From a bacterium (lineage in GTDB: Bacteria > Hinthialibacterota > Hinthialibacteria > Hinthialibacterales > Hinthialibacteraceae), in NCBI GenBank assembly GCA_963662285.2, contig CAXXMV010000006.1, forward strand, positions 384,001-448,000: a stretch of DNA of 64,000 bases, in the 5' to 3' direction. The position numbers and the translations under genes were made by a program. Below are positions 581 through 55,797 of this stretch, one piece after another (position 1 is the stretch's first letter; every line of letters begins with the position of its first letter). Under the pieces are notes generated by a model that saw only the letters and a program-made list of their open reading frames with translations, was not told the DNA's origin and did no database searches.

Positions 581-3500
581 ATGAAAACACTCTATGGATT
601 AATGTTCCTCGTTCTCGTACTCACGGCAACGTCTCTTAATGTTGAGGCGAACGCTTCCCGCGTGGCCGTCGGTGATATCAACGGCGACGGCATTGACGAC
701 CTTCTTATAGCAACAACAGATTTTCTGGTTGTGGCCGAAGCCGTAGGCGACGGGACATTCATGCCTGGAGAACGTATAACGCTTGATCCCGGACAACCCA
801 TAGAAGCTTCGTTTATTGAACTGCTAGGAAATGGGCAACTCTTTACCATGGCGGCCTATTCAGACCTGGGCGGCGTGCAGGTCAATAGGGGAAACAACCA
901 GTTTCCCATTCGCAGTTATGGAATGGGAGTGGAACTGAGCCGAATTATTAGAATCCCTCAAACCAGCTCCTCCGATTTGATATTCACTAGTTTTGATACT
1001 TCAGAAAAAGGTATCCTGATTGGCTACAAATCTTCGGAACAACGCTTTGTCGTTATTCATGACCTCGAATATAGTGCGCCGGTTCAGGATGTTGCATTCA
1101 GTACGTTGACTGATAGCGATCTGTATACCCTGGCGGTTTTACACGATCAATATCTTAATATCTACGCTTATGATGCTTCATCCGGCTTCGCAACGCCTGT
1201 AGAGATTCAACTGACGGATAATGAAGCCTCAAAGATTGAGTCTGGATCAATCAATGGCAACGCATTGCCAGACCTTTTGCTTTGGAATCCTGAATCGTCA
1301 ACTGTCTCTACCGTGAGTTGGATTAGCGGATCGAGTTGGAAGACAACACCGTATACGCTGCATACTCCAGTTAGCATACTGGCAGTCGGCGACGTGGATG
1401 GAGACGGTTTCGCCGATCTTCCTTCAATCGCTTCGGCGCAGAATGAAATTATTTTCTATCACAACCAAAACGGCTCTACGTTCGCATCATCCAGTTTGAC
1501 GTTGCCCTTCTCAATGGATGAAAACGAAGAAGCCGCCATTCAGTGCGGAAATTTTTCCACAACCCAAAATGGATTTGTTGTTGTTGCGCCAGACTCAGAC
1601 AGCGGGCCGGAAATCTACTTTGTACCAGTAGATAATGGAAGCATCTCAACCACTGTATCCTCTACCATCTCCACCCCGCCCGAAAAACCCTGCAACTACG
1701 CCAACGTCGTGATCCGCGACGCCTCCAATCCCGAACTGATCTACCGCAGCGAACGCATCCCGGATTGGACTACCGGCGCAACGATTATTACAAACAAACT
1801 ATCCGTGCAGCATGAACAAGATACTGGCTCGGGACTGGCGCTAGCAACTGATATTATAATTTCCGGCATTCATAGTAATATCTGGCCGAGTGAAATTGAG
1901 GTCGTTCCGAATCAGCAAGACGACGACCAATCATTATTCTTCCTCACGCCTTCAATGCCTATTACGTTGCTCAAGACGTTAATTACGCCAACCGGTGGCA
2001 CGCACGGTCGAACCGTTACTCCAGTGCTTGAATCACGGGAAAGCGCTTCGATTTACTATCGTAAAAACGGTGGATCGTGGAAACTTTATGATCCAGATGA
2101 AACTCAAATTTATTTCTACCGAAGCGGCTCGCTCGATGCTTATGCAACTTATGGACCTTTTATCAGTTCGATGGCCTCAGCATCCTATATCGTCGATCAA
2201 CCTTACGACGCCGATTCGGATTACGACGGCCTCCCCGATTTCGTTGAAGAAGCATACGGCCTTAATCCACTTGATGGCGACGTCGACTCGGATGATGATG
2301 GCTGGCGCGACCTGGATGAACTGATTCGGGAGACCGATCCTTTGGATGCCGATTCATTTCCCGCAGATTCTGATATTCCCGATGGAGACGGCTGGTCGGA
2401 TTTCGACGAGACGCTGCGCCAAACCGATCCCGGCGATCCAGAATCTAATCCTACGGTCAGCGGTTTGGAAGTTCCCGAAGCAGTGGTTCCGATAGAAATC
2501 AACGAGTCGGCGCTGAACACTCCCACCGGAGTCGATGGTTCTTCTCTTAAGGCCAAACTGCTTACAGGATATGAAATTGATTCAGCTACATTAGACAATG
2601 CGTCATCCCTGCGCATGAGAGTGGATCATCCCTCGATATCGGGTTATACGGATGGTGATGACGCCGAAATCGTCTTATTGACTTATGTTCCCCGGAAAAC
2701 TTATGATCCTCAAATCGACGGTGATGAATCGACTACTGCGGAAGAATGGATCAAAGCCTACGCAGATGAAATGCATACTTCATTGTTCGAGAAGCGGACG
2801 GCGCTTATGCATGACGCCGAGACGACAGCCGTAGTACTCGCTCTAGCGCGATTTATGGAACAGGCGCTATCGCTTACTGCGCCGAACATAATTTGGACCG
2901 CATCGGGAACCGTTTCGCAAAGTGACATCAACCGCCTTGAACAAACCGTGAACCTGGATGAGGCCGCTTCCTATTTGACCGAACACATCTCCGAAACCTC
3001 ATTGCCCGGCATGGTGCGCGCATATATCGAGTGGGGCAAAACCGAAGATATTCGCGGGACTATCATCGAACGTTTGGCCTGGATTCTGCATGGCTGGACG
3101 CCGGACGAAAGCGATGCGCCAGACGCTCTTCCCGCCAAAACGCTTTCATCCAATCACGCTCAACAACCAGCGGGAATCGATTTCACATCGATTCTTGACG
3201 AGTTGGATACGCTATTTTTGTCGATCCCAACCCTTGAGATAGAATTGGAAGGCGTATTGGCATGGGACGAGAGAGATTTTGTTACCCTCGTTCATGACGG
3301 GATTGCCTATGGATTCAATGATGAAGGAGCGACGCTCTCGACCGGTTCAGAAGTACGTATTAAAGGACGCGTAGTTGTACCGTCTCCCTACAGTGATATC
3401 GTCTGGGTTAAAATGACGGCGCTGGAACAAATCGATAATCCTTTGTTGAGCGTTAACACTATCGACTCTGATAACAATGGCCTTGCAGACCAGTGGGAAG

Positions 3501-3658
3501 CCTTCTATTTCCCTTCCGGCGCATTGCCCACTGACGACCCTGACGAAGACGGTTATACCAATAAGCAGGAATATGATGGTTATTCTGATCCTACCGATGT
3601 GAATTCCATCCCCTCAGCATCCGGTACTCGAATACGCAATTGGTTCTTGTATGAATAG
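581..3658 (+). CDS. Secreted FG-GAP/VCBS-repeat protein with bacterial thrombospondin type-3-like Ca-binding repeats and a C-terminal W-motif tag
   Basis: ATG 581 follows GAGG and opens a signal peptide (MKTLYGLMFLVLVL...VEA). FG-GAP motifs GDINGDGIDDL and GDVDGDGFADL. DSDxDGxxDxxE...TDP repeats. Ends IRNWFLYE. Confidence 0.8.
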   Translation: MKTLYGLMFLVLVLTATSLNVEANASRVAVGDINGDGIDDLLIATTDFLVVAEAVGDGTFMPGERITLDPGQPIEASFIELLGNGQLFTMAAYSDLGGVQVNRGNNQFPIRSYGMGVELSRIIRIPQTSSSDLIFTSFDTSEKGILIGYKSSEQRFVVIHDLEYSAPVQDVAFSTLTDSDLYTLAVLHDQYLNIYAYDASSGFATPVEIQLTDNEASKIESGSINGNALPDLLLWNPESSTVSTVSWISGSSWKTTPYTLHTPVSILAVGDVDGDGFADLPSIASAQNEIIFYHNQNGSTFASSSLTLPFSMDENEEAAIQCGNFSTTQNGFVVVAPDSDSGPEIYFVPVDNGSISTTVSSTISTPPEKPCNYANVVIRDASNPELIYRSERIPDWTTGATIITNKLSVQHEQDTGSGLALATDIIISGIHSNIWPSEIEVVPNQQDDDQSLFFLTPSMPITLLKTLITPTGGTHGRTVTPVLESRESASIYYRKNGGSWKLYDPDETQIYFYRSGSLDAYATYGPFISSMASASYIVDQPYDADSDYDGLPDFVEEAYGLNPLDGDVDSDDDGWRDLDELIRETDPLDADSFPADSDIPDGDGWSDFDETLRQTDPGDPESNPTVSGLEVPEAVVPIEINESALNTPTGVDGSSLKAKLLTGYEIDSATLDNASSLRMRVDHPSISGYTDGDDAEIVLLTYVPRKTYDPQIDGDESTTAEEWIKAYADEMHTSLFEKRTALMHDAETTAVVLALARFMEQALSLTAPNIIWTASGTVSQSDINRLEQTVNLDEAASYLTEHISETSLPGMVRAYIEWGKTEDIRGTIIERLAWILHGWTPDESDAPDALPAKTLSSNHAQQPAGIDFTSILDELDTLFLSIPTLEIELEGVLAWDERDFVTLVHDGIAYGFNDEGATLSTGSEVRIKGRVVVPSPYSDIVWVKMTALEQIDNPLLSVNTIDSDNNGLADQWEAFYFPSGALPTDDPDEDGYTNKQEYDGYSDPTDVNSIPSASGTRIRNWFLYE

Positions 3659-37299: not shown

Positions 37300-37368
37300 A
37301 TATTGGTAATCTTCGTAGATAAATAACCAACAATATCAAGTGTGCTTCTCAGTAAAGCGAGAACGATC

Positions 37369-37932
37369 ATGCCGATCCTGAAAGAAAAAGAACGGTATAC
37401 CTACAAGGATTATTGCGGTTGGCCGGATGAAGAACGGTGGGAACTGATCGACGGCGTAGCTTATGATATGACGCCCGCGCCCATCTTAAGACATCAGGAT
37501 ATTGTTTTAAATCTTGGCGGCATCCTCAAAAATGCGCTCAAGGAAAAGCAATGCATAGTCGGCATTGCTCCAACGGATATAGTTTTGTCGGATCATGATG
37601 TCGTGCAGCCGGATGTTTACGTCGTTTCTGATAAAACCAAGATAACCGAAAAGAACATCCAGGGAGCGCCTGATTTCGTAGCGGAAATATTGAACCCTTC
37701 AACATCCAAAAAAGACCGTTGGATTAAGAAGAAACTTTATGAAAAATATGGCGTCCGCGAATACCTTATTATCGATCCGGATGGTGAATATATCGAACGT
37801 TATCTATTAGTGGATAAAGGTAAATTCGATCAAGGCGAGGCCTTTGATACGGATAGCGTCATGCAACTGAAATCTCTATCCGGTCTGAAAATTTCAGTAC
37901 AGGATATGTTTAGCAAATCAATTGATGTGTGA
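37369..37932 (+). CDS. Uma2 (DUF820) PD-(D/E)XK family endonuclease, copy 1
   Basis: YTYKDY..WP...RWELIDG....TPAP...HQ, VQPDV, GAPDFVAEIL.PST...D...KK.LYEKYGVREY.IIDP. Confidence 0.92.
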   Translation: MPILKEKERYTYKDYCGWPDEERWELIDGVAYDMTPAPILRHQDIVLNLGGILKNALKEKQCIVGIAPTDIVLSDHDVVQPDVYVVSDKTKITEKNIQGAPDFVAEILNPSTSKKDRWIKKKLYEKYGVREYLIIDPDGEYIERYLLVDKGKFDQGEAFDTDSVMQLKSLSGLKISVQDMFSKSIDV

Positions 37933-37994: not shown

Positions 37995-38064
37995 ATAAAG
38001 GTAATCTTCGCATAAGCATAAGCAATAATATCAAGTGTACTTCTTCCGCAAAGCGAGAATGATT

Positions 38065-38628
38065 ATGCCGATCCCGAAAGAGAAAGAGCCATATTCCTAT
38101 AAGGATTATTGCGGTTGGCCGGATGAAGAACGGTGGGAAATAATCGACGGTGTAGCTTATGATATGACGCCCGCGCCCATCTTAAGGCATCAGGATATTG
38201 CCGGGAACTTTTTTGTTATCCTCAAAAATGCGTTAAAGGAAAAGCAATGCGTAGTCGGCATTGCTCCAACGGATATAGTTCTGTCGGAGCATGATGTTGT
38301 GCAACCGGATGTTTACGTCGTTTGCGATAAAGAGAAACTAACCGAAAAGAACATCCAGGGGGCGCCTGATTGCGTCGCGGAAATATTGAGTCCTTCCACA
38401 TCCAGAAAAGACCGTTGGATCAAGAAGAAACTTTATGAAAAATACGGCGTCCGTGAATATCTTATTATCGATCCGTCTGGTGAGTATATCGAACGTTATC
38501 TATTAGTGGATAAAAGTAAATTCGATCAAGGCGAGGCCTTTGATACAGATAGCGTCATGCAACTGAAATCTCTATCCGGTCTTGAAATTTCAGTACAGGA
38601 TGTGTTCAGTAAATCAATTGGCTTATGA
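38065..38628 (+). CDS. Uma2 (DUF820) PD-(D/E)XK family endonuclease, copy 2
   Basis: Near-identical tandem paralogue of 37369..37932 with the same motifs. Confidence 0.92.
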   Translation: MPIPKEKEPYSYKDYCGWPDEERWEIIDGVAYDMTPAPILRHQDIAGNFFVILKNALKEKQCVVGIAPTDIVLSEHDVVQPDVYVVCDKEKLTEKNIQGAPDCVAEILSPSTSRKDRWIKKKLYEKYGVREYLIIDPSGEYIERYLLVDKSKFDQGEAFDTDSVMQLKSLSGLEISVQDVFSKSIGL

Positions 38629-46174: not shown

Positions 46175-49100
46175 CTAGAACAGATGCCAATTCATAACTT
46201 TGGTATCTTCTTGAAACTCATAGGCTCCGATATCCGGCGCAATACTATAAGGGCGTTGGTTTCCGATGTAATCAACCAGTACATCAGTAGCGATCCCGGA
46301 ATCAATAAGTGGGGAAGTTACCGAAAGACTGACATTCAGGTTTGGCATATCTTGAAATTCCGGATTGATTGAAAAGTTAGTTTCAACCAGACTAGAAGGC
46401 AATTGCATCAAGTTGGAATGGCTTAATGTTGCTATTGAAATTCCATCAACCTGTAGGCTCTGTTCGGAATCCCAGATTATACAATTTATAATCTCTCCGG
46501 TTCCGCCTCCTTGATTGGGATTCTTTTCATAGATCCCGATGCCCGTCTTGCAGGAAACAATTGTGTTATGAATGATTTGCGCAACGCATTCATCTTTGAT
46601 CGCGATGCCAATTGCGCAACCGGCAATCACCGTATTGATAACCGAAGGAGTACTGCTTCCTTCAAGTGAGATTCCCTTATCTGCGCAATTTTCAATCCAG
46701 TTTCTTTCCATCAGCGGCGAAGAAAAGCCCAAATCAATTCCATCATCTTCAGAGCCTGAAATGACATTTCCACGAATCACGGAACCGCTTCCTAGTTCAC
46801 CATCAAAGTCGATAGCGTCACTGTACCCTATCGTATTCTCGAAGCGGTTGTTCTCTACAATGCTGAAGCAGTTACTGCAATGCAGCATCTCGCCTAAATT
46901 GAGAAATCGGTTTGCGCGAATGGTTAAATACGAATTGTGCGCCTCAATTCCGGCGCCTGCGCCATTGCCGAGTGAGATATCATGGATGAAACATCCAACG
47001 ACCTCTATGGTGCTGTCGTTAATTGTAATCGCAGCGGGATACTGTTTATTATTGTATCCGGTTGGACTGGTTTGGGTTAATTCTGCATAATGAATTCTGA
47101 CCGTTCCAACTGCTCTTTCTACAGCGATCACGCCCCAATTTTGTTCTGGATTCTCTGGAAGAAAACGTACCGGATGGTCTTCTTCTCCATTCACGATCAG
47201 AGTTCCGTAAACAATAATTGAAGCAGCTGGCGCCATCTTAAACGTAATACCCGGTTCGATTGTCAATGAACTTGTCGAGGGAATGATAATATTCCGATCA
47301 ACCGTTATCGGGCTTTGATCTGTCGTCCAGATTTCATCTCCTTGGATTTCCCACTCATCTCCAACTGGTTCAGATTGCCAATTGACAACAACATCCGTTG
47401 CTTCGAGAATCTGACCACCCGCATTCAAAGCTTCGATATGAAATGAATTTTTGCCCGGTTGAAGAGTATAGGGATACGTCCATTCCGCTTTCCAGGGGAC
47501 ATAGTTAACCGGTGCGCCGTTAACGTGTACCGAGTAAGTCAGAATCGCGTTGGCATTGCCTTTTACTTCAATATTCCTTGCTTCTTTAGTCGCTCCGTCA
47601 AGTTGCGCCGCCAATGAAAAATCGGAACTGTTTAAATCTACATTAGCGCCAAAAAGCGCCAGAACATTCTCGCCCTTCACGAGCAAGGCGGAAGCATTAT
47701 CAATGGAGAAAGATTCGGGGCTTTGCGCTTCATGATTTCCATCCGCAAAAGAGTTGAATGTTGGCGTCATCGAGTAATTGTTACGTGCGACTTCCGTTCC
47801 ATTCAAATAAGCCACAAAGCCATCATCATATAAAACGTGTAAAATTAAACTCGTTAAATTTTCAGGATCTTCGATTTGAAACGTTTTACGAATAAAAACC
47901 GTCGAATATTGATTCTGCATATCATTTAGAATAGTACGGTCATCGTTGTCTCCGTATCCAATGCCGATGGGGCCGGATTCCCATGAAGAATCATCGAATC
48001 CAATTTGATTCCAATCAGCAGGTAAAGCCTGTTGTCCACGGAAAAAGCGCCATTGCGCTCCATCGGGGATAACTACCAATCCACTTTCCATACTGACTTC
48101 AGCAGTTAGCGAGCGTGGGATTGACGATTGAATGAAATCCCTTAATTCTCTTGAAACTTGTTTCATATCGTTGCGGACATCTTCATTCGCAACTGAAGAT
48201 GTCCGGTCGATTATGGCATCCATTTTTTCCTGAGTAATTTCATTATCGAGGATGCTGGCCAATTCCGCATAATAAAACCGTGCTATACCTGGATGGGTTA
48301 GAAAACGATAGATGGCTGGAGTATCGTATTGAAAAATTGGTCGGAACGGCCGGATAATAACACTATCCAGATCCCAGGGTAACAGATAGAACAGATCATC
48401 ATTTGGATTGTTATACATATAGTAATCATCTCCCCGTTCTTTGGAGAGACCGCCTTCGAGATCATTAAGTATTTTCTTGAGAGCAAACCAGCGAAGCCAT
48501 TGATGAACATTGATATTCTGTTGCAATGCCTCAACAAACTGGTCGTCGCTTGTCGTGGAGAACGCGGTGCATAATCGGATAACATCGGAATAATCATCTT
48601 CCAGTGCGTTGGTGATTTTTTCGTAGTTGGATCGATACCGATTGGGATCATCGCCCCGGTAATCCAGATTGGCTTCTTCTATACCCCGGTACAGATTGCC
48701 GCTTTCATCCCCGAATTGACGACCCATCATGTCTTTATCGGTTCGTTCCATTTCAATGTAATTGGGAACAAATTTCTTGTTGAATACCAGCGAAACAAAT
48801 TGCGTGTTTGGCGCTGGCAGTTGAAGAAGCTTAAAACATTCCATGCCCACATACTGACGATGCGGTTCTATCGCATTTAGATTAAGTTTACGAACTGTAT
48901 CGAAATAATGGCTTAGAGAAAAATTTACGCGGTACGATTTAGGTTCTTTTCCTCTCGAACCTTTACCGCGGAATCGCACGCCGACGTTATAGTAGATAGC
49001 ATCATTATAAATGAATGAAGAATCAAGTTCTTCATTACTCTGTGCAGAGCGGGTGCGCAATGTACGCTCATCTTCATCCCGCATAATAATGCGATACAGT

Positions 49101-50026
49101 GGTATATCGGTGTTATAGACTGTATCATCAACTCGATATATTGCTGGCCGGTCCTCGCCTTGGATCGGAAAGAATCCACTATTCAAATCTGTATCAATCG
49201 CTTCAATATAAAATTCAACAACGCTTCCCGTGGTTTGAGCGGGAATATTTGTTCCCCAAATACTATCCTTGGCGGAACCATCGTTATGTTTACCATCATC
49301 GTACATTTCCGATGTTATAAAGAGAGTTTCCTGCTCGAGTTTGAACCATACATTGGCTTCTTGAATAGGTAGGGGATGATCCATCTGGCAGATAATGGTT
49401 ACTGTATCACCGCTTGTTGGCGATACAGGACTTTGGGTAACATCTTTTACAATAGGAAATGGTGAAGGAACCATTGAAGAGTTTGGTTTACCTGGAGTAC
49501 CTCCAATCGGTCCTTTCCGCCAACTTTCAGGTCGGTTGCTAGACATAAATGGATTTATTCGTTCGATTGATGCGCCCAATCCATCCGCTTCAGGCGGCCA
49601 TCCTCCTTCATCACGATATAAAACACTATCCACCATTTCATGTAAATCATTGAGTAAACTAATAGTCTCGCCGTCGTTGCTTAATTTCCCCTTGAAGGGT
49701 CCAAATGCAGAAATGTCAGGATAAAGTTTTTGCATTGCGACAGGTGATGCGGATACAACTAAGTAGCCCGCAGCTGGAAAAATAGTGTCCGGTGGAAAAG
49801 CAAACCGGATACCTTCATCGATTTGCCAGTTCGATATATCCACATCACTCGTAGTCGGATTGAACAACTCAATGTATTCATCATCATTATCCAGGGAAGA
49901 TGGATAATACATGATTTCATTAATGACAATTTGAGCATTGCTTGTAGAGACAAATATAATAGAAACCACAAAAATCAGGGGAAAAAGACGCATGACTGGA
50001 TGTTTCCTCTCGATATTTCGATACAT
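46175..50026 (-). CDS. Secreted lamin-tail domain / CotH kinase family / beta-sandwich / beta-helix protein with C-terminal W-motif tag
   Basis: IVINEIMY...EYIELFN LTD. GVRFRGKGSR...KSYRVNF and LPWDLD CotH motifs. DDGIDL beta-helix and RP...PDIGAYE. Ends VMNWHLF. Confidence 0.85.
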   Translation of the reverse strand: MYRNIERKHPVMRLFPLIFVVSIIFVSTSNAQIVINEIMYYPSSLDNDDEYIELFNPTTSDVDISNWQIDEGIRFAFPPDTIFPAAGYLVVSASPVAMQKLYPDISAFGPFKGKLSNDGETISLLNDLHEMVDSVLYRDEGGWPPEADGLGASIERINPFMSSNRPESWRKGPIGGTPGKPNSSMVPSPFPIVKDVTQSPVSPTSGDTVTIICQMDHPLPIQEANVWFKLEQETLFITSEMYDDGKHNDGSAKDSIWGTNIPAQTTGSVVEFYIEAIDTDLNSGFFPIQGEDRPAIYRVDDTVYNTDIPLYRIIMRDEDERTLRTRSAQSNEELDSSFIYNDAIYYNVGVRFRGKGSRGKEPKSYRVNFSLSHYFDTVRKLNLNAIEPHRQYVGMECFKLLQLPAPNTQFVSLVFNKKFVPNYIEMERTDKDMMGRQFGDESGNLYRGIEEANLDYRGDDPNRYRSNYEKITNALEDDYSDVIRLCTAFSTTSDDQFVEALQQNINVHQWLRWFALKKILNDLEGGLSKERGDDYYMYNNPNDDLFYLLPWDLDSVIIRPFRPIFQYDTPAIYRFLTHPGIARFYYAELASILDNEITQEKMDAIIDRTSSVANEDVRNDMKQVSRELRDFIQSSIPRSLTAEVSMESGLVVIPDGAQWRFFRGQQALPADWNQIGFDDSSWESGPIGIGYGDNDDRTILNDMQNQYSTVFIRKTFQIEDPENLTSLILHVLYDDGFVAYLNGTEVARNNYSMTPTFNSFADGNHEAQSPESFSIDNASALLVKGENVLALFGANVDLNSSDFSLAAQLDGATKEARNIEVKGNANAILTYSVHVNGAPVNYVPWKAEWTYPYTLQPGKNSFHIEALNAGGQILEATDVVVNWQSEPVGDEWEIQGDEIWTTDQSPITVDRNIIIPSTSSLTIEPGITFKMAPAASIIVYGTLIVNGEEDHPVRFLPENPEQNWGVIAVERAVGTVRIHYAELTQTSPTGYNNKQYPAAITINDSTIEVVGCFIHDISLGNGAGAGIEAHNSYLTIRANRFLNLGEMLHCSNCFSIVENNRFENTIGYSDAIDFDGELGSGSVIRGNVISGSEDDGIDLGFSSPLMERNWIENCADKGISLEGSSTPSVINTVIAGCAIGIAIKDECVAQIIHNTIVSCKTGIGIYEKNPNQGGGTGEIINCIIWDSEQSLQVDGISIATLSHSNLMQLPSSLVETNFSINPEFQDMPNLNVSLSVTSPLIDSGIATDVLVDYIGNQRPYSIAPDIGAYEFQEDTKVMNWHLF

Positions 50027-50050
50027 GGAATACTCCTGGATATACTTTGA

Positions 50051-50080
50051 AAACGGGGCAGACGAAGAGACGCCTGCCCC
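50051..50080 (-). terminator. Putative intrinsic terminator or attenuator between the 880-aa gene and the CotH gene
   Basis: Minus strand GGGGCAGGCG-TCTCTT-CGTCTGCCCC followed by GTTTTC. Confidence 0.55.
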
Positions 50081-50170
50081 TTAATAAAGTATATCAAGAA
50101 ATTAGTAATACATCGACCAATTTGTTCTCTCCAGAAAATAGATTCTGCATCATCAGCGAAATTACTAAAT

Positions 50171-52774
50171 TTAGTAAATAGACCATTCGTAGACCGGTGT
50201 GGTATCTACCAAGTCTACTTTAATGAAAAATCTACGTGCTTCTGACTGTGTGAAGGTGGAGGGATTATCGGCAATACCTCCGCTATCGGTTCCTGTAGTG
50301 GTATCGAAGACATAGTCAGGAGGAACCTCACCACGGTCGCTTGTACCTTCGCCTGCAAATCCAATGTAGACGCCATTCAACCATGCCAGCCCGGCATCGT
50401 CAGCTTCCAGCAGCAAATAGAGACCGGAGATGGAATCGTAATTGGCCGCATCGAATATAGTGCGCGTGTAAACGGTTTCATCCGCTGTTGTGAGTCGAGT
50501 TTCACCATTTTCACCGTCATTACCACCGTGGCCAATGGAAAATCCAATATCGGATTGCTGGGTCCAGCCGCTGTCATCAAAATCTCGCTGTTGCCAATTC
50601 GGTTCCTCTTCACCTGTAAGGTCATCGGATAAGACCACTTTCCAGTTAAATTGTGATCCCTGAGGCCAGCCGCCTTCCGCGCTGCTATCTTGAACATAAA
50701 TTACGCCATTGTTGTCGGATAAATCTGCTGTAGCAGCTAAATCACTGCTTCCATTGTCATCATTCCATAATCCAATAGCGAGTACATTACCCTGTTTGTA
50801 TAGGGGGACATCTTCCACTACCTCAAAGGGGGTAAGTGAAGTTGGACCAGTCGCGATTACGACATAGGAGCCATCGTCGCCTGAACCATTCCAATCACCA
50901 CTTGATGCATCCGGGGGAGAAGTCACATCATAAGTAAGCGTATTGCTTCCTCTAGCGCCGGTTAGAGTCCAGACAATGTTGCCATCAGCGTCAACACTGG
51001 CTGCTCCTGCGCTTTGGCTTACAATTGATGCAGTCCAGCCAGACGGTGGAGTTTCGGTGATGATTACGTCCGATTGCTGTCCATCAGGGATGTTCGCCGT
51101 CAACTGGATCCCTTCAAGCGCCTGTCCGGGTATAAAGCCGGATGATGGCATTGTACGGCTAAGAGTGAAAGGAGTTGCTTTTATAAGAATCTTAAAAGTT
51201 CGCGCTTCGGGCTGCGTGTAAGTGGATGGATTAGCTTCAATGCCTCCGCTGTCTGTTCCTGTTGTAGTGTCAAATACAAAGTTGGGTGGAACCTCACCCC
51301 GGTCGCTTGCAGCCTCACCTGCTAAACCGATATAGACGCCATTGAACCAAGCCAATGCGGCGTCATCGCCTTCCAGTTTCAAGGTTAATTCAAAAATCCC
51401 TTCATAATCGACGGCGTCAAAGATGGAGCGCGTGTACACGGTTTCTTCATCTTCGGAGAGAATAGTTTCACCATTTTCTCCATCATTACCGCCATGTCCG
51501 ATAGTAAAGCCCACATCAGTCTGGATAGCCCACCAGTTATCTTCCAGGGCGACGAAATCACGGTTCTGCCACCCAGGTTCCTCTTCTCCATATCCATCAG
51601 CAAAAAGCACGGTCTTCCATTGGAACACCGTGCCTTGCGGCCAACCGCCCTCTGCGCTGGTGTCCTGTACATAGATCACGCCATTGTTGTCGGACAATTC
51701 CGCCGTAGCGGCCAGGTCGGAGCTGCTGTTACTATCATTCCAAACACCGATAGCTAGAACATTGCCAGTTTCGAAGAACGGAACCAGCATTTGGATCAAG
51801 TCATCGCCGGTAACACTGAAAAATTCATTAACGGTTCCGCTGAAGGTGTTATAAGCGGCTGCGTTAATTCCCGCCTGGATCGAGTAAGTAAGTGTTTTCG
51901 ATCCGCTGAAACCGGGCAAGTTCCAGGTTATTTTACCATCAACCGCCACGCCGCCATCACTGATATTTTCGGCTGTCCATCCGAATGGAATATCCTCGAC
52001 TATCACTACATCACTGGTTCCTACCGCGAGCGATACATCCATAGAAATGTCTGAAGAGCCACCGGCCGAGATTATCTTCGTCGATATATCACGCACGCAT
52101 TGCGCAATAGGCACATTATCGAGCAGCACGGTAAGTTTTGGTTGATTTTCGGAGCCATACGATGAAATTACCCCATGACCACCTCCTGAGACGGGAATAA
52201 ATATCCAGCCATAGTTTGTTCCTCCATTGACGATATTTTGAATGGCATCGGTCATGTCAATTTTCAGTATATCGCCCTCGTTACTTGAACCGGGGCAGAA
52301 AGCAATAGCGGACGCGGCGTAATCCTCACCAGCCCGGGGAGCAACTCCGTCGCCAAAATCAATCAAATCACTGGCGTCATCAAAAGGAATCAGCAACTCA
52401 TGAATATCCGCGCTTCCTCCTTCATCATCAACTACTAAGTCTAATTGCGCGAGTTGAACGATGCTGTTTGGTGGAATCTGATTGACCCCGGTTCCTACGA
52501 TATCTTCGAACCGGATAAAACCATAATTGACTCCATTCGCATCAGAATCATCCCATTCCCATGTCTCATCAAATCCATGTACAGCGTCAGGAACTCCTGT
52601 TTGGAAGAAGGTGTCGTAAGTTCCCTCATAACCGTTTACTTCCTGTTGAAATTCATAGATTCCATCCTGAGCGTGAGCGAGTGTTCCCAATACTAATACT
52701 AAGCATAATGCGCCCAGAAAAATTACTGTTCCTTCATTGATAATTCCCATCGAGTGCTTGCGTGATTTGCCCAT
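50171..52774 (-). CDS. Secreted acidic multidomain protein: DNRLRE-like domain, then 2x[Ig-like + beta-sandwich], then C-terminal W-motif tag
   Basis: Signal peptide ending AHA. YEGTYDT...GFIRF...QIPP...A.L.L...NYGW...PKLTV N-domain. Two highly similar ~190-aa repeats starting GNVLAIG.WND. Ends VYEWSIY. ATG 52774 has AAGGA RBS. Confidence 0.8.
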   Translation of the reverse strand: MGKSRKHSMGIINEGTVIFLGALCLVLVLGTLAHAQDGIYEFQQEVNGYEGTYDTFFQTGVPDAVHGFDETWEWDDSDANGVNYGFIRFEDIVGTGVNQIPPNSIVQLAQLDLVVDDEGGSADIHELLIPFDDASDLIDFGDGVAPRAGEDYAASAIAFCPGSSNEGDILKIDMTDAIQNIVNGGTNYGWIFIPVSGGGHGVISSYGSENQPKLTVLLDNVPIAQCVRDISTKIISAGGSSDISMDVSLAVGTSDVVIVEDIPFGWTAENISDGGVAVDGKITWNLPGFSGSKTLTYSIQAGINAAAYNTFSGTVNEFFSVTGDDLIQMLVPFFETGNVLAIGVWNDSNSSSDLAATAELSDNNGVIYVQDTSAEGGWPQGTVFQWKTVLFADGYGEEEPGWQNRDFVALEDNWWAIQTDVGFTIGHGGNDGENGETILSEDEETVYTRSIFDAVDYEGIFELTLKLEGDDAALAWFNGVYIGLAGEAASDRGEVPPNFVFDTTTGTDSGGIEANPSTYTQPEARTFKILIKATPFTLSRTMPSSGFIPGQALEGIQLTANIPDGQQSDVIITETPPSGWTASIVSQSAGAASVDADGNIVWTLTGARGSNTLTYDVTSPPDASSGDWNGSGDDGSYVVIATGPTSLTPFEVVEDVPLYKQGNVLAIGLWNDDNGSSDLAATADLSDNNGVIYVQDSSAEGGWPQGSQFNWKVVLSDDLTGEEEPNWQQRDFDDSGWTQQSDIGFSIGHGGNDGENGETRLTTADETVYTRTIFDAANYDSISGLYLLLEADDAGLAWLNGVYIGFAGEGTSDRGEVPPDYVFDTTTGTDSGGIADNPSTFTQSEARRFFIKVDLVDTTPVYEWSIY

Positions 52775-53058
52775 TATTTTTTCCTTTATTTTGAAATAAT
52801 TGATCTTATGCAACCGCAGTTATACTACGTGCGCATTTTTATTAGTCCCTTCAAAGCGATTTAATCCGTTTTGATATCCAATTTGCTTTTCATGCAAAAT
52901 AATTAAGATGTTGCTTCATAAAATTTGATACAACATGGATAAAGAGTTGTTCTTTAACTTGAATATTTCTACATTATCACCACCTTTCGTAAGAGTTCTC
53001 TATTGAAATCAAATTGTTGTTTAATATTCATATATTGTTTTTGATTGATTTTTTACGC

Positions 53059-53637
53059 TCATCCACCAGCAATGAATTTTCCATCTAACATGATGCGGCC
53101 TGAATTATATTGACCTCCCAAGCGAATAATATCTCCGCCGCTGCTTAATCCATTGCTGGTATCGTAACTTCGGATAGTTGTACCAAACGGAAAACCATCG
53201 TTTCCACTGACTTCTTCTGTCCGGTCCGGACCGGCGGAAATGATGATATAGGCCTGGGCTGGCCATTGTTTTCCTGCTTTAGAAGCATTCCCCGAACCAA
53301 ACTCAAAGGTGGGGTTATCTTCCGTGTAATTCCCGGCAGGCCCTCCGGCGAAAGCATCTCGCGGCAATGATGACATGTAAGCCATTGGAGTAGTCAGGCG
53401 GAATAGACCTCTTTCGTCCATTCCTCCACTGGGCCAGTCATGATCTTCCACATACGTGTTATTATCCAGATAATATTGTTCCAGCGCCGTAGAAAGCGCT
53501 TTCATATCCGCTTGCGTCCGGCTGACTTTGGCCCGCATTTGCGCATTCAGAAAATTCGGAACCGCAATAGCAGCAAGAATTCCAATAATTGCCACAACGA
53601 TCAACAGTTCTATCAACGTAAATCCATGTTTTTGCAT
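53059..53637 (-). CDS. Prepilin-type N-terminal cleavage/methylation protein (GspG/PulG-like pseudopilin)
   Basis: MQKHG^FTLIELLIVVAIIGILAAIAVPNF class III signal with E+5. DM..L.TALEQY.LD and ISAGPD GspG-like motifs. Confidence 0.9.
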   Translation of the reverse strand: MQKHGFTLIELLIVVAIIGILAAIAVPNFLNAQMRAKVSRTQADMKALSTALEQYYLDNNTYVEDHDWPSGGMDERGLFRLTTPMAYMSSLPRDAFAGGPAGNYTEDNPTFEFGSGNASKAGKQWPAQAYIIISAGPDRTEEVSGNDGFPFGTTIRSYDTSNGLSSGGDIIRLGGQYNSGRIMLDGKFIAGG

Positions 53638-53691
53638 TTCAGCAACCTGCCTATCTTCTAAAATATTTTTTGAATCACTCAACAAAATAAT

Positions 53692-53728
53692 CGCTTGATT
53701 CCCTGAGATTGCTTCAAGGAATCAAGCG
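53692..53728 (-). terminator. Hairpin between the beta-helix gene and the prepilin gene
   Basis: CGCTTGATTCC / GGAATCAAGCG 11-bp perfect stem, followed on the minus strand by ATTATTTTGTT. Confidence 0.5.
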
Positions 53729-53768
53729 TGCAATATAAATCAAATTTATCTGGGAGGTAAAACTCATA

Positions 53769-54767
53769 TTAGTAAATAGACCAGTTGCCAACATCTGCAG
53801 GAGTTGCACCCTGCGACCCGGCAAAGGTCGGATCGCCAGTTGGATCCAAATTTTCGTCGAAACTGGTGTTTCCTGCCGTTAATGCAGGGGAACCAGACTG
53901 CAAATGAAGATCCATAGTTGTTGCGGTAAATCCCATCCCTGGAGCGGCAACATAAAGTGGATCTTCACCAATGCTATAATCATCGATCCACACGGCGCCG
54001 CCATTTACATCCAGACGGCCCATTAGCATACCCGTTATACCTGAAGGATCACTATCAAGTGGATCCCAACCAACGCAATGGACAACGCTGATAAAGCCCA
54101 ATGTTTCGATATCGTTGGCGCCGGGTCCGGCATAAAGAATGCAATTCTTCAATATGGCTTCTGATGTATCCGCCGCTTCAATGATATCGCTCATACCGAG
54201 GAACATATCGCAGTTGGTAAAAACTCCGATCGAACTTCCGGCTAAGTTCACTGTGTCGCCAGTTGCCCAGCCCAACACACAGAAATTAAACGCCGCCTCA
54301 GCTGTGTCATTAATATCAATTACGTTTTCCATTGCTTTCAATGCCCACACATTATTAAATGTGTTATCAAACGACCCGGCATCAAACTCAATAATCGAAT
54401 CTACCGCATTGATTGCGGTGAAATCCTCAAAGAGGCAACCATCAATGCCATCATCGATTTTGATGGCGGAATCGAAAGCGAATCCGCAGTCGAGAATCGT
54501 TGCTGTAGAAGGATCCATCCCCGATCCTGCGCCTCTCACTGTTGTGCCCGCAGGAAGGCGCATTAGATCCGGTCGACCTGTTTCATCTTCTTTGGGAACT
54601 AATTTGTAATAACCAGCTTCGAATGTTATCGTACTTTCGGCGTCGACGACTGTCTGAATAATTCCGACTACATCGTCGCCTGGTTTAATGGTCACATTTT
54701 GTTGGGCCATCGCAGAGAGCCCAATTATTGAGAGAATAAAGACCTGTATAGATATGCGTGTAATCAT
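53769..54767 (-). CDS. Secreted acidic pectin-lyase-like beta-helix protein with C-terminal W-motif tag
   Basis: Signal peptide ending AMA. T..GAG.G.DP..ATILD, NCD, KNCI and DP.YV...D.HLQ.GSPAL. Ends VGNWSIY. Confidence 0.75.
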   Translation of the reverse strand: MITRISIQVFILSIIGLSAMAQQNVTIKPGDDVVGIIQTVVDAESTITFEAGYYKLVPKEDETGRPDLMRLPAGTTVRGAGSGMDPSTATILDCGFAFDSAIKIDDGIDGCLFEDFTAINAVDSIIEFDAGSFDNTFNNVWALKAMENVIDINDTAEAAFNFCVLGWATGDTVNLAGSSIGVFTNCDMFLGMSDIIEAADTSEAILKNCILYAGPGANDIETLGFISVVHCVGWDPLDSDPSGITGMLMGRLDVNGGAVWIDDYSIGEDPLYVAAPGMGFTATTMDLHLQSGSPALTAGNTSFDENLDPTGDPTFAGSQGATPADVGNWSIY

Positions 54768-54793: not shown

Positions 54794-55753
54794 TTATTGT
54801 GCCGGTCCCATGGCGCCGGCGTATGTTTGGTTTCCGTCTGCATCTTTACCAATCGTGAGAGCGGGCGATCCTGCTTGTAAATGGAAATCCAAATCCAGCC
54901 AGAAAACGTGCGGACCAACATTAACATAAAGTGGATCACCACCGATTCCATCGATTTCATAGGCGCCGCCTTCGAAGGCGATTCCTCCTAATCCATCAGC
55001 ATCCTCGCCCGGAGGATCGAAGAATACGCTGTTGTGAATTTCTGTAAGACCGCTTCCGCCATCGACATCGTCTGAAAGACTTCCGGCATGGAAAATACAA
55101 TTTTTGACGATTACTGTTGAATTATCTTCATTATCGAAAATATCGCTGTCCCAGTCATAGAAATCACAATTCTGGAACAGGACGGCGCTATCACCTTCCA
55201 GATCAGTGCCATCATCTCCACCACGGGCGAAGACGCAGTTGTAGTAACGGATCATTTCGTCAAAAAATTCTGGATCACCCATCCCTCCGGTTCCATCGTT
55301 ATCGGCGCCGGAATCGCAAGCGAGAAACCAGCAATTTCTGATTTCTATGTTGAGTGCATCACTATTGCCTTCCACGGCTTCATCATAAATGTTGATCATT
55401 GTAAAACCGTCTATGACTATATCGACCGTGGCAATTTGGAAGCCTGTTGCGATAAACCAGGCTTCTCCATCCAGGATTGTCGCTGTTTCAGGATCCGTGC
55501 CTGGACCGGCGCCTTGCAGGGTAATTCCTTCGAATTCCGAGTGTAAATCAATACCTACTCCACTGCCGGGCTCGACTGGTACCAGGTCGTACCATCCCGG
55601 TGCAAAAATCACCGTCCCTTTAAATCCCGCCTCTATCAAAGCGGCTCCAATATCATCCCCAGGGCTTACATTCACAGTGGTTTGTCCGAAAACGCCTGCT
55701 GCTGACCCCAGGACAAGTGCGAATACTGCTATTGCCGAGGTTTTTAATCTCAT
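54794..55753 (-). CDS. Secreted acidic beta-helix protein, paralogue of 53769..54767, without the tag
   Basis: ATG 55753 with GAGGAG RBS. Shares LQGAGPG.DP..ATILD, NCD, KNCI, DPLYV, DFHLQAGSPALT and TYAG. Ends MGPAQ. Confidence 0.75.
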   Translation of the reverse strand: MRLKTSAIAVFALVLGSAAGVFGQTTVNVSPGDDIGAALIEAGFKGTVIFAPGWYDLVPVEPGSGVGIDLHSEFEGITLQGAGPGTDPETATILDGEAWFIATGFQIATVDIVIDGFTMINIYDEAVEGNSDALNIEIRNCWFLACDSGADNDGTGGMGDPEFFDEMIRYYNCVFARGGDDGTDLEGDSAVLFQNCDFYDWDSDIFDNEDNSTVIVKNCIFHAGSLSDDVDGGSGLTEIHNSVFFDPPGEDADGLGGIAFEGGAYEIDGIGGDPLYVNVGPHVFWLDLDFHLQAGSPALTIGKDADGNQTYAGAMGPAQ

Positions 55754-55797
55754 TCCTTTGCTCCTCTCTTTTTGATCATTTTTCAATTAATTCTTAG

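Follow-up and report, generated by a model that had tools for sequence, protein, structure and literature searches.

Four window proteins with a common C-terminal tail

The window analyzed here, by which we mean the whole stretch of 64,000 nucleotides from the genome of an uncultivated bacterium, contains four genes whose products end in the same nine-residue tail, T-x-[VI]-x-[DNE]-W-x-[LIM]-[YF]. These genes, their tags, and two neighboring genes lie as follows.

581..3658, + strand: tagged protein 1, with FG-GAP repeats; the ORF is open from 491 and has a signal-peptide-like start at 581
3626..3655, + strand: tag of protein 1, the nine-residue motif plus one E before the stop; matrix score at least 10
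46175..50026, - strand: tagged protein 2, with a lamin-tail domain (LTD), CotH, a right-handed beta-helix, and a choice-of-anchor Q domain
46178..46204, - strand: tag of protein 2, nine residues, abutting the stop codon
50171..52774, - strand: tagged protein 3, LRR_adjacent / weakly DNRLRE-like; the ORF is open to 52813
50174..50200, - strand: tag of protein 3, nine residues
53059..53685, - strand: GspG-like pseudopilin paralog, co-directional with tagged protein 4 and 84 bases downstream of it
53769..54767, - strand: tagged protein 4, a 332-residue beta-helix protein with no Pfam family
53772..53798, - strand: tag of protein 4, nine residues
54794..55786, - strand: untagged tandem paralog of protein 4, aligned to residue 320 of 332 and ending three residues further on

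The endings given in a preliminary description of this DNA (TRIRNWFLYE, TKVMNWHLF, TPVYEWSIY, and ADVGNWSIY, each followed by a stop) are exactly those of the four proteins, whose bodies do differ in fold as it proposed, being distinct by both Pfam and NCBIfam, and no further ORF in the window scores as tagged. It had also pointed out that the sequences starting at 50171 and 53769 have their first 15 bases in common. This identity is present, but it is a codon coincidence and carries no weight as evidence for the tag, since the 170 tags identified in this genome (see below) are encoded by 168 distinct 27-base strings in which all synonymous codons are in use.

In protein 2 the NCBIfam choice-of-anchor Q domain extends to residue 1272 of 1283, which leaves 11 residues ahead of the stop, and the tryptophan of the tag is invariant across 24 aligned orthologs with 35-80% identity. 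Protein 4 presents a similar picture, with W329 invariant and V326 nearly so in 20 orthologs of 38-77% identity; among 27 orthologs the tag is found in 21, an untagged end in one, and an extra domain of ~180 residues in its place in four. The adjacent paralog at 54794..55786 stops without a tail, so that the tag of protein 4 amounts to a 12-residue add-on, and the order of untagged paralog, tagged gene, and pilin gene is kept in another genus. In an AlphaFold2 model of protein 4 (mean pLDDT 83.9) the linker and tag at residues 321-332 have a pLDDT below 50 and no secondary structure. In a second AlphaFold2 model, residues 291-300 have a pLDDT of 80 and residues 301-304 one of 67, and a short turn of helix is present. 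Both models are least confident over the tail, which is less clearly free in the second. These data show that the tail is a modular add-on of 9-12 residues.

The motif across the genome and related phyla

To score C-termini we used a nine-column matrix derived from the genome's own tags, with which 170 of 5363 true C-termini score at least 10, although this count is partly circular because the matrix was trained on 123 of the same tails. The mock-end control is free of this circularity, and only 0 of 4854 and 1 of 4387 mock termini match when proteins are cut 50 and 100 residues upstream, respectively. The tagged proteins make up ~3% of the ORFs, which were called with an in-house greedy caller at a minimum of 80 residues, and ~10% of the signal-peptide-like set. 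The first regular expression used matched at the C-terminus of 124 of the 5363 ORFs against 0.27 expected, the expectation being derived from the 52 matches that it makes internally over 2.08 million positions. Positions -9 and -7 were absent from this seed expression and are nevertheless conserved, as T in 73/108 and V in 83/108, and each of positions -14 to -10, upstream of the tag, carries less than 0.7 bit. The tag is exactly terminal in 138 of the 170 proteins and is followed by one extra residue in 31 and by two in one; the additions in these 32 are E (13), N (5), D (4), K (3), R (2), Q (2), Y (1), H (1), and EE (1), and some orthologs have 2-4 residues after the tag. The tail is thus a genuine, portable short linear motif joined to its cargo by a short linker, and its pattern of conservation shows it to be under selection at the protein level. 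It is not described in the literature searched, and an NCBIfam scan of the four window proteins (E up to 1) returned no model covering it, in agreement with the earlier view of it as a candidate undescribed signal.

The proposed enrichment among secreted proteins is pronounced, in that 153 of the 170 tagged proteins are signal-peptide-like, compared with 1298 of the 5193 other ORFs (odds ratio 27), as called by an in-house crude hydrophobicity heuristic rather than by SignalP. Lipobox-like starts, likewise called by an in-house heuristic, are rarer with the tag (7/170 vs 145/1298). After trimming of the last 15 residues the 170 proteins form 80 groups when any local similarity is counted and 105 when the similarity must be full-length, showing that the tail marks exported non-lipoprotein cargo from at least 80 unrelated families. 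Pfam matches are present in 37 of 71 tagged proteins from a second phylum (see below), and include glycosidases, carbohydrate-binding modules (CBMs), lectin-like domains, deacetylases, LTD, and FG-GAP, as well as peptidases of the S8/S1/M14/S13 types.

The motif is not confined to the four window proteins or to their genome, as had been anticipated. Within the window's own phylum, whose named relatives are Hinthialibacterota/OLB16, 34 of 35 genomes have it, as does part of a second phylum with records titled Sumerlaeota. A DNA pattern of the tag has 65 matches in the window's own genome, against three for a control, and 17-47 matches in each of 19 other genomes of the family; when 185,579 species genomes were scanned, all 19 of the 19 multi-hit assemblies were titled uncultured, Omnitrophota, Hinthialibacteria, or Sumerlaeota. 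Within the second phylum the strict DNA pattern has at least five matches in 18 genomes and none in 25. Four of the pattern-negative genomes gave no match to the tag matrix in 224 ORFs around pseudopilin genes, and one of these four has three adjacent genes with a degenerate W-containing ending, so that negatives by the strict pattern are unreliable. On these scans the tail is confined to two phyla.

Homologs elsewhere that share the LTD-CotH-beta-helix architecture of protein 2 carry other modules at the tag position. [quoted passage not shown] As judged from these shared architectures, the tail occupies the site taken by known sorting and anchoring modules in its homologs.

Comparison with known C-terminal signals

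C-terminal sorting tags decide which exported bacterial proteins are released, anchored, or displayed, and to our knowledge all of those described are either membrane-anchored tripartite signals or folded domains. For tripartite signals, the consulted part of one study (10.1101/2023.06.07.544157) lists as criteria a C-terminal position, many unrelated carriers with signal peptides, restriction to a lineage, and homologs that differ. Like the LPXTG/sortase, PEP-CTERM/exosortase, GlyGly-CTERM/rhombosortase, and MYXO-CTERM/myxosortase systems, the tail lies at the extreme C-terminus of many proteins per genome, here 170. Its carriers are likewise predominantly signal-peptide-like (153/170), otherwise unrelated (at least 80 groups), and lineage-restricted, with homologs elsewhere that either lack the tail or have a different signal. 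Unlike these signals, it has no hydrophobic transmembrane segment, the chain ending 0-2 residues past the motif, and no basic cluster, the extra residues being mainly E (13), N (5), and D (4). The preliminary description was correct that the tag contains neither a membrane helix nor a domain of ~80 residues, the latter also being evident from the weak conservation at positions -14 to -10 and from the 12-residue difference between protein 4 and its paralog. The analysis found neither an intramembrane protease nor a sortase cognate to the tail, and a heuristic screen for a C-terminal helix plus basic cluster returned 96 proteins with no signature recurring by eye.

As with the T9SS C-terminal domain (PF18962 / TIGR04183), which takes the same place in the LTD-CotH-beta-helix architecture, the tail marks Sec-exported, folded, and often very large hydrolytic or adhesive cargo. 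The T9SS tail is, however, a folded domain whose Pfam model spans 75 positions, whereas the tag is nine residues that score lowest in confidence in both structural models. The searches gave no evidence for T9SS as the tail's own system: the tails of the four window proteins have no Pfam match and a whole-genome search with PF18962 gave two matches, both sub-threshold. SprA_N has no match in this genome, nor in any of 14 control genomes, so that the control is uninformative.

The consulted parts of two sources describe GlyGly-CTERM/VesB as a C-terminal feature coupled to surface delivery dependent on a type II secretion system (T2SS) (10.1101/2023.06.07.544157, PMC12369372), and in one of them GlyGly-CTERM cargo reaches the surface only with a T2SS (10.1101/2023.06.07.544157). 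The tail is comparable in being a C-terminal feature of Sec-exported enzymes, here in a genome with three Gsp operons and linkage to pseudopilin genes. GlyGly-CTERM, though, has a membrane helix and is cleaved by rhombosortase, whereas the tail has no helix. In VesB the PDZ-dependent secretion information resides in an Ig fold and not in a linear tail, according to the part of the report consulted (PMC12369372), and unlike the VesB system the three Gsp operons here include no PDZ-bearing GspC. As expected of T2SS substrates, the tagged cargo has signal-peptide-like starts and occurs in a genome judged to have a complete T2SS, its linkage to GspG-like paralogs being a genomic one.

The beta-signal of outer-membrane barrels and the DegS-activating Y-x-F are short C-terminal motifs that end in an aromatic residue, and the tail too is short, aromatic-ended, and at the free C-terminus of exported proteins. 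Positions -3 and -5 of the tag are polar, so that it would not form the alternating hydrophobic strand of a beta-signal, and its cargo consists of soluble enzymes and beta-helices rather than barrels. Two further systems, dockerin-cohesin of cellulosomes and the WxL cell-wall-binding domain of Gram-positives, are C-terminal and tether a variety of enzymes, without covalent bonds, to a partner bound to the cell. Dockerin and WxL are folded domains many times longer than the tail, and the W-x-L within the tail matches the name of the latter by coincidence; there is no dockerin or WxL Pfam match in the four window proteins and no PF00404 match in the 71 tagged proteins of the second phylum.

Candidate readers of the tail

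We propose that, once cargo has passed through Sec and folded, a single shared receptor would recognize its exposed tail as an address or a label for docking, which would send the cargo out of the periplasm and/or hold it at the cell surface. The findings support the earlier reading of the tail as a secretion or sorting signal, and we assign a probability of roughly 60% to the whole of this common-receptor explanation, in which the export or attachment role is suggested by analogy and by the 'choice of anchor' pattern among the homologs. Carried by roughly one in ten predicted secreted proteins, a label of nine residues would be shorter than any other of its kind known to date, and its occurrence in two polymer-degrading phyla that have hardly been studied would suggest a reader still to be discovered. 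From sequence alone, the tail offers a one-line rule by which the extracellular enzymes of these organisms can be predicted, and a tag this short and transferable could be used to route recombinant proteins.

A pseudopilin gene is adjacent to 18 of 124 tagged genes, compared with 78 of 1340 other signal-peptide-like genes (OR 2.75, p 8e-4), and 18 of 19 tagged gene-pseudopilin pairs in this genome are co-directional with gaps of 0-250 bases. The second phylum shows the same excess (9/71 tagged vs 14/385; OR 3.8, p 0.004), with all pairs co-directional. Among 425 neighbors of tagged genes in this genome and 235 neighbors at 68 loci in nine second-phylum genomes, pseudopilins recur across genomes and are the only recurrent neighbor family in the second phylum. 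Sensor kinases, oxidoreductases, sulfatases, and transposases also recur beside tagged genes, in the window's own genome only and as large families.

No reader emerged from the searches. The excess in both phyla of two-gene units consisting of a tagged gene and a GspG-like paralog makes the type II secretion/pseudopilus family the only genomic lead to a reader. An adjacent pseudopilin gene is limited to ~15% of tagged genes, and we put the odds that the pseudopilus machinery is the route for tagged cargo at well below even. GspG-like paralogs number ~110 in this genome and the family occurs in 75 of 75 second-phylum genomes, where, among the matches listed, the paralogs are about equally numerous with or without strict tag matches, so the family is not tag-specific. 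The three Gsp operons encode GspD, F, G/H/I/J/K, and L/M-like genes, and none of them shows a PDZ-bearing GspC. A comparison of the tag core with the last residues of the genome's canonical GspG gave a score of 4.0 and three shared residues, too weak to serve as evidence. Should the pseudopilin link be functional, it would allow a direct test of cargo choice by type II-like machines and open to test the role of the large GspG-like gene expansions.

A more speculative form of this idea, to which we give rather less than an even chance and indeed consider doubtful, is that a type II secretion/pseudopilus machine is addressed here by a C-terminal targeting peptide that is both portable and linear, the first of its kind, with the nine exposed residues docking folded cargo onto the pseudopilus or onto GspG-like paralogs. 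The docking paralogs would be co-transcribed with part of the cargo, and docked cargo would be expelled through a secretin or displayed on a short fibre. Linear T2SS signals are excluded according to the consulted part of a review (PMC9251779), which makes a T2SS reading unlikely a priori in well-studied models. If true, the proposal would contradict the textbooks, in which T2SS signals are never linear, and would provide a function for the hundred-fold pseudopilin expansions in these and related phyla.

It is also conceivable, if unlikely, that the tail is not involved in passage through the outer membrane and acts outside as a miniature dockerin, docking enzymes non-covalently on a scaffold or surface receptor to build a cell-bound multi-enzyme layer. 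The cargo consists mostly of polymer-degrading and carbohydrate-binding modules, a true dockerin (PF00404) takes the tag position in one homolog of the same architecture, and the genome has a secretin/PilMN cluster with a gene for a signal-peptide protein that matches the Pfam Cohesin domain at 33.2 bits (cut-off 24.1). This cohesin-domain family, however, is found in 73 of 75 second-phylum genomes with or without strict tag matches, and being near-universal it does not track the tag; dockerins are calcium-binding modules of ~70 residues, which the tail does not resemble, and no repeated receptor domain was found. Phylogenetic profiling for a reader was dropped, as both the cohesin-domain and GspG-like families are near-universal in the second phylum and strict-pattern negatives are unreliable.

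Periplasmic quality control is an explanation that we consider quite improbable. Here a PDZ protease, either HtrA/DegS-like or a C-terminal processing peptidase, would read the tail, and lingering cargo would be degraded or would trigger an envelope stress response. The DegS PDZ domain recognizes C-terminal aromatic residues of outer-membrane proteins, and in 138/170 tags the [LIM]-[YF] pair is terminal, leaving the carboxylate of the aromatic residue free. PDZ candidates in the genome are four HtrA-like PDZ proteases, one S41 peptidase (Ctp type), RseP, and a beta-helix protein that is secreted and has a PDZ domain at its C-terminus; apart from the last they are of ordinary types, and none is located in a Gsp operon. 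The 32 of 170 tags with 1-2 extra residues, 30 of them polar, and the orthologs with 2-4 are a poor fit to a pocket for a terminal hydrophobic side chain. Moreover, conservation extends nine residues upstream, more than PDZ-type C-terminal sensors are known to need, and a degradation tag leaves unexplained the sorting and anchoring modules found at the same position in homologs.

We see little prospect that a dedicated peptidase or transpeptidase cuts within the tail or ahead of it and joins the cargo by a covalent bond to lipid, glycan, or pilin, using a minimal signal. The T9SS sortase acts comparably, cleaving and attaching after the C-terminal domain, and T9SS tails hold the tag position in homologs; conservation of the T, V, acidic/amide, and W positions would be in keeping with processing, and the depletion of lipoprotein-type signal peptides among tagged proteins is compatible with an alternative anchor. 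However, no sortase-like or other candidate enzyme recurs among the 425 and 235 neighbors, and the precursor lacks the membrane segment of known tripartite signals as described in the consulted part of their survey (10.1101/2023.06.07.544157).

That the tails share no function can be dismissed as extremely improbable, for in spite of the 15 bases common to two of the four window tags, chance is contradicted by 0 and 1 matching mock ends against 170 real ones, a DNA or RNA element at gene ends by free synonymous variation among 168 coding strings, and the last strand of a common fold by the lack of conservation upstream of -9, the 12-residue addition relative to a paralog, and the spread over at least 80 families.

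The tail and its carriers

The C-termini of four window proteins, on re-check of the translated ORFs, are identical to those of the preliminary description. The tag is T-x-[VI]-x-[DNE]-W-x-[LIM]-[YF], nine residues at the extreme C-terminus, with positions counted back from the end (-9 to -1).

Tagged genes of the window and their neighbors
581..3658, tagged protein 1, FG-GAP repeats
46175..50026, tagged protein 2 (the CotH protein, 1283 aa), lamin-tail domain, CotH and right-handed beta-helix
50171..52774, tagged protein 3, LRR_adjacent and a weak DNRLRE-like match
53059..53685, minus strand, GspG-like pseudopilin gene between the third and fourth tagged genes
53769..54767, tagged protein 4 (the 332-aa protein), beta-helix protein with no Pfam match
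54794..55786, untagged paralog of tagged protein 4, upstream of the fourth tagged gene

The bodies of the four proteins are unlike each other in Pfam and NCBIfam domain content, as first described; the remaining window ORFs all fall below tag score, and no NCBIfam model (release 20.0) covers the tail in the four proteins. Elsewhere in the window, two tandem ORFs of ~196 aa (37342-37932 and 38035-38628, plus strand) are near-identical, with the same N- and C-terminal sequences.

A home-made greedy caller finds 5363 ORFs of at least 80 aa in this 7.29 Mb genome; 248 of the 5363 have W at position -4, a 3.0-fold enrichment. Among 108 proteins picked solely by a terminal W-x-[LIVM]-[YF], leaving -9 and -7 unselected, 73 have T at -9, 83 have V at -7, and conservation is below 0.7 bit per position at -14 to -10. 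A wider regular expression matches 124 C-termini in the proteome, against 0.27 expected from internal frequency. Using a nine-column matrix derived from the genome's own tails, with a score of at least 10 defining a tagged protein, we found 170 tagged ends among the 5363 true ends, compared with 0 of 4854 mock ends 50 residues upstream and 1 of 4387 mock ends 100 residues upstream. The tag is the exact C-terminal end in 138 of the 170 and lies one residue further in in 31 and two in one; the 31 single extra residues are E (13), N (5), D (4), K (3), R (2), Q (2), Y (1) and H (1). F or Y replaces W in ten of the 170.

The proposed association with secreted proteins holds genome-wide: by a crude signal-peptide heuristic, counting proteins that appear exported without later membrane helices, 153 of 170 tagged proteins are signal-peptide-like versus 1298 of 5193 others (odds ratio 27). 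By this heuristic, tagged proteins make up about 10% of all signal-peptide-like ones (153 of 1451), and lipobox-like starts, also called heuristically, are scarcer in tagged proteins (7 of 170 versus 145 of 1298). Clustered after trimming the final 15 residues, the 170 tagged proteins resolve into 80 groups when any local similarity counts, 59 of which have a single member, and into 105 when similarity must be full-length. Pfam matches were obtained for 37 of 71 tagged proteins in a second phylum, the genomes titled Sumerlaeota; the matched families are glycoside hydrolases, deacetylases, phosphodiesterases, subtilases, trypsin, M14 and S13 peptidases, carbohydrate-binding and lectin-like modules, LTD, FG-GAP and beta-helices.

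An appended, exposed peptide

The tail is appended, exposed and under protein-level selection. Alignment of the tandem paralogs 53769..54767 and 54794..55786 stops at residue 320 of 332 and 327 of 330 respectively, and the tagged member extends 12 residues beyond it. The tag is present on 21 of 27 database entries related to the 332-aa protein; one other has an untagged end, and in four a further domain of ~180 aa takes its place. Across 20 orthologs of this protein (38-77% identity) the W never varies and V(-7) hardly does; the W is likewise constant across 24 CotH protein orthologs (35-80% identity). AlphaFold2 predicts the 332-aa protein with a mean pLDDT of 83.9 and pTM 0.84; its residues 321-332 score below 50 and lack secondary structure. 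For the C-terminal 304 residues of the CotH protein the mean is 94.3, falling to 80 and then 67 across the final 14, which include a short helical turn, and this tail is predicted to be less clearly free. The 170 tags have 168 distinct 27-base coding sequences between them, with every synonymous codon used, which excludes a nucleotide element. The 15 identical bases reported at two window tags are present, but with 168 coding strings per 170 tags they are a codon coincidence of no significance.

The NCBIfam choice-of-anchor Q domain in the CotH protein ends at residue 1272 of 1283. Among 120 relatives listed for its last 304 residues, the closest 25 have the W tail, intact or degenerate, and finish 10-12 residues past a conserved motif, whereas more distant relatives of the same architecture (record titles Bacteroidales, Latescibacterota, Fibrobacter and Melioribacteraceae) have PF18962, the type IX secretion tail, at the position of the tag. 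Verrucomicrobia- and Lentisphaerae-titled relatives (P0026-P0036, P0044, P0050-P0053 and P0081) have a different conserved C-terminal domain there, several with precomputed PF28492; possibly this is another PVC-group sorting domain. A dockerin or hydrophobic anchor occupies the position in a few relatives. Replacement of a tail by other modules in homologs is listed as typical of sorting signals by Haft (10.1101/2023.06.07.544157). In the genome of the window itself, PF18962 matches stay below threshold and no tripartite tail recurs.

Distribution across genomes

A back-translated DNA pattern of the tail matches 65 times in the genome of the window, against 3 for the reversed pattern used as control, 17-47 times in each of 19 other genomes of the family, and 0-27 times in the 15 remaining genomes of the phylum, Hinthialibacterota; 34 of 35 genomes match, with controls giving at most 4. 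A stricter pattern matches 83 stretches among 185,579 species, each represented by a single genome. Among the 80 matches listed, 53 fall in 19 assemblies with at least two each, all titled uncultured bacterium, Candidatus Omnitrophota (including SURF_12), Candidatus Hinthialibacteria OLB16 or Candidatus Sumerlaeota, and 27 are scattered single matches, five of them in one conserved Photobacterium gene. PMC9324843 places SURF_12 and OLB16 in Hinthialibacterota, and 'Candidatus Hinthialibacter' provides close named relatives of window proteins. The Sumerlaeota-titled genomes fall in the second, distinct phylum of 75 genomes, with at least five matches in 18 genomes and none in 25 (controls at most 2). 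One genome negative for the strict pattern has a degenerate W-containing ending with 2-4 extra residues on three adjacent genes (locus L176, G045:C189:42000-56000), suggesting lineage-specific drift of the tag, and zero strict matches therefore do not equate to absence of the tail. Hinthialibacter-titled orthologs also have endings with 2-4 further residues.

Reading of the tail and candidate machinery

We favor, with a probability of roughly 0.6, the reading that the tail is a short linear label, serving as an address or for docking, that is recognized once Sec export has taken place. It could alternatively be a surface docking tag, a quality-control signal read by a PDZ domain, or a processing site. 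A secreted 813-aa beta-helix protein with a terminal PDZ domain (C8:28298-30739, minus strand) adjoins a tagged gene (C8:27020-28279); PDZ domains are unusual on exported enzymes, and this one could bind C-terminal tails. We found no published description of such a tail in open full-text literature on Hinthialibacter, OLB16, Sumerlaeota, sorting signals and T2SS linear signals.

For the machine behind an address or docking label, a type II-like pseudopilus system is the best lead, but a weak and rather doubtful one. It would be surprising if true, because linear type II secretion (T2SS) signals are stated in a review (PMC9251779) to have been excluded. The sole recurrent neighbor family of tagged genes is the GspG-like pseudopilins, with about 110 paralogs. 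Of 124 tagged genes, 18 directly adjoin a pseudopilin gene (permutation mean 7.1). The corresponding figure is 78 of 1340 for the other signal-peptide-like genes (odds ratio 2.75, p 8e-4) and 107 of 3789 for the rest of the genes. In 18 of 19 pairs the two genes point the same way, 0-250 bases apart. In 68 second-phylum loci from nine genomes, a pseudopilin gene adjoins 9 of 71 tagged genes, co-directional in all nine cases, versus 14 of 385 other ORFs, and no other neighbor family recurs across these genomes. The SURF_12 genome keeps the order untagged paralog, tagged gene, pseudopilin (identities 68% and 80%). Eight ortholog pairs have longest contigs of identical length and may thus lie on the same contigs. 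Against a tag-specific link, genomes without strict tag matches show the same expansion of the family, and only about 15% of tagged genes are paired.

The pseudopilin paralogs (e.g. 53059-53685, minus strand) have a median length of 207 aa, a near-identical prepilin N-terminus and a globular part with conserved motifs, and their expansion is equal across all 75 second-phylum genomes. The genome of the window encodes three Gsp operons, a type IV pilus, a Tad system and a TPR-secretin/PilMN cluster; its eight secretin genes include those of the three complete Gsp-type operons and two tandem short secretins at C3:300794-302336. Locus L158 (C8:410000-430000) encodes a 1057-aa secretin carrying TPR repeats at its N-terminus, a fusion of PilM and PilN similar to the Akkermansia Amuc_1101 family (E 1.7e-70, below cut-off), and a Cohesin-domain (Pfam) protein with a signal peptide, whose family is present in 73 of 75 second-phylum genomes. 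A 527-aa transposase-like ORF is present in three copies alike at both ends (C1:576871-578454, C2:1134649-1136232 and C8:145204-146787), at most two genes from tagged genes.
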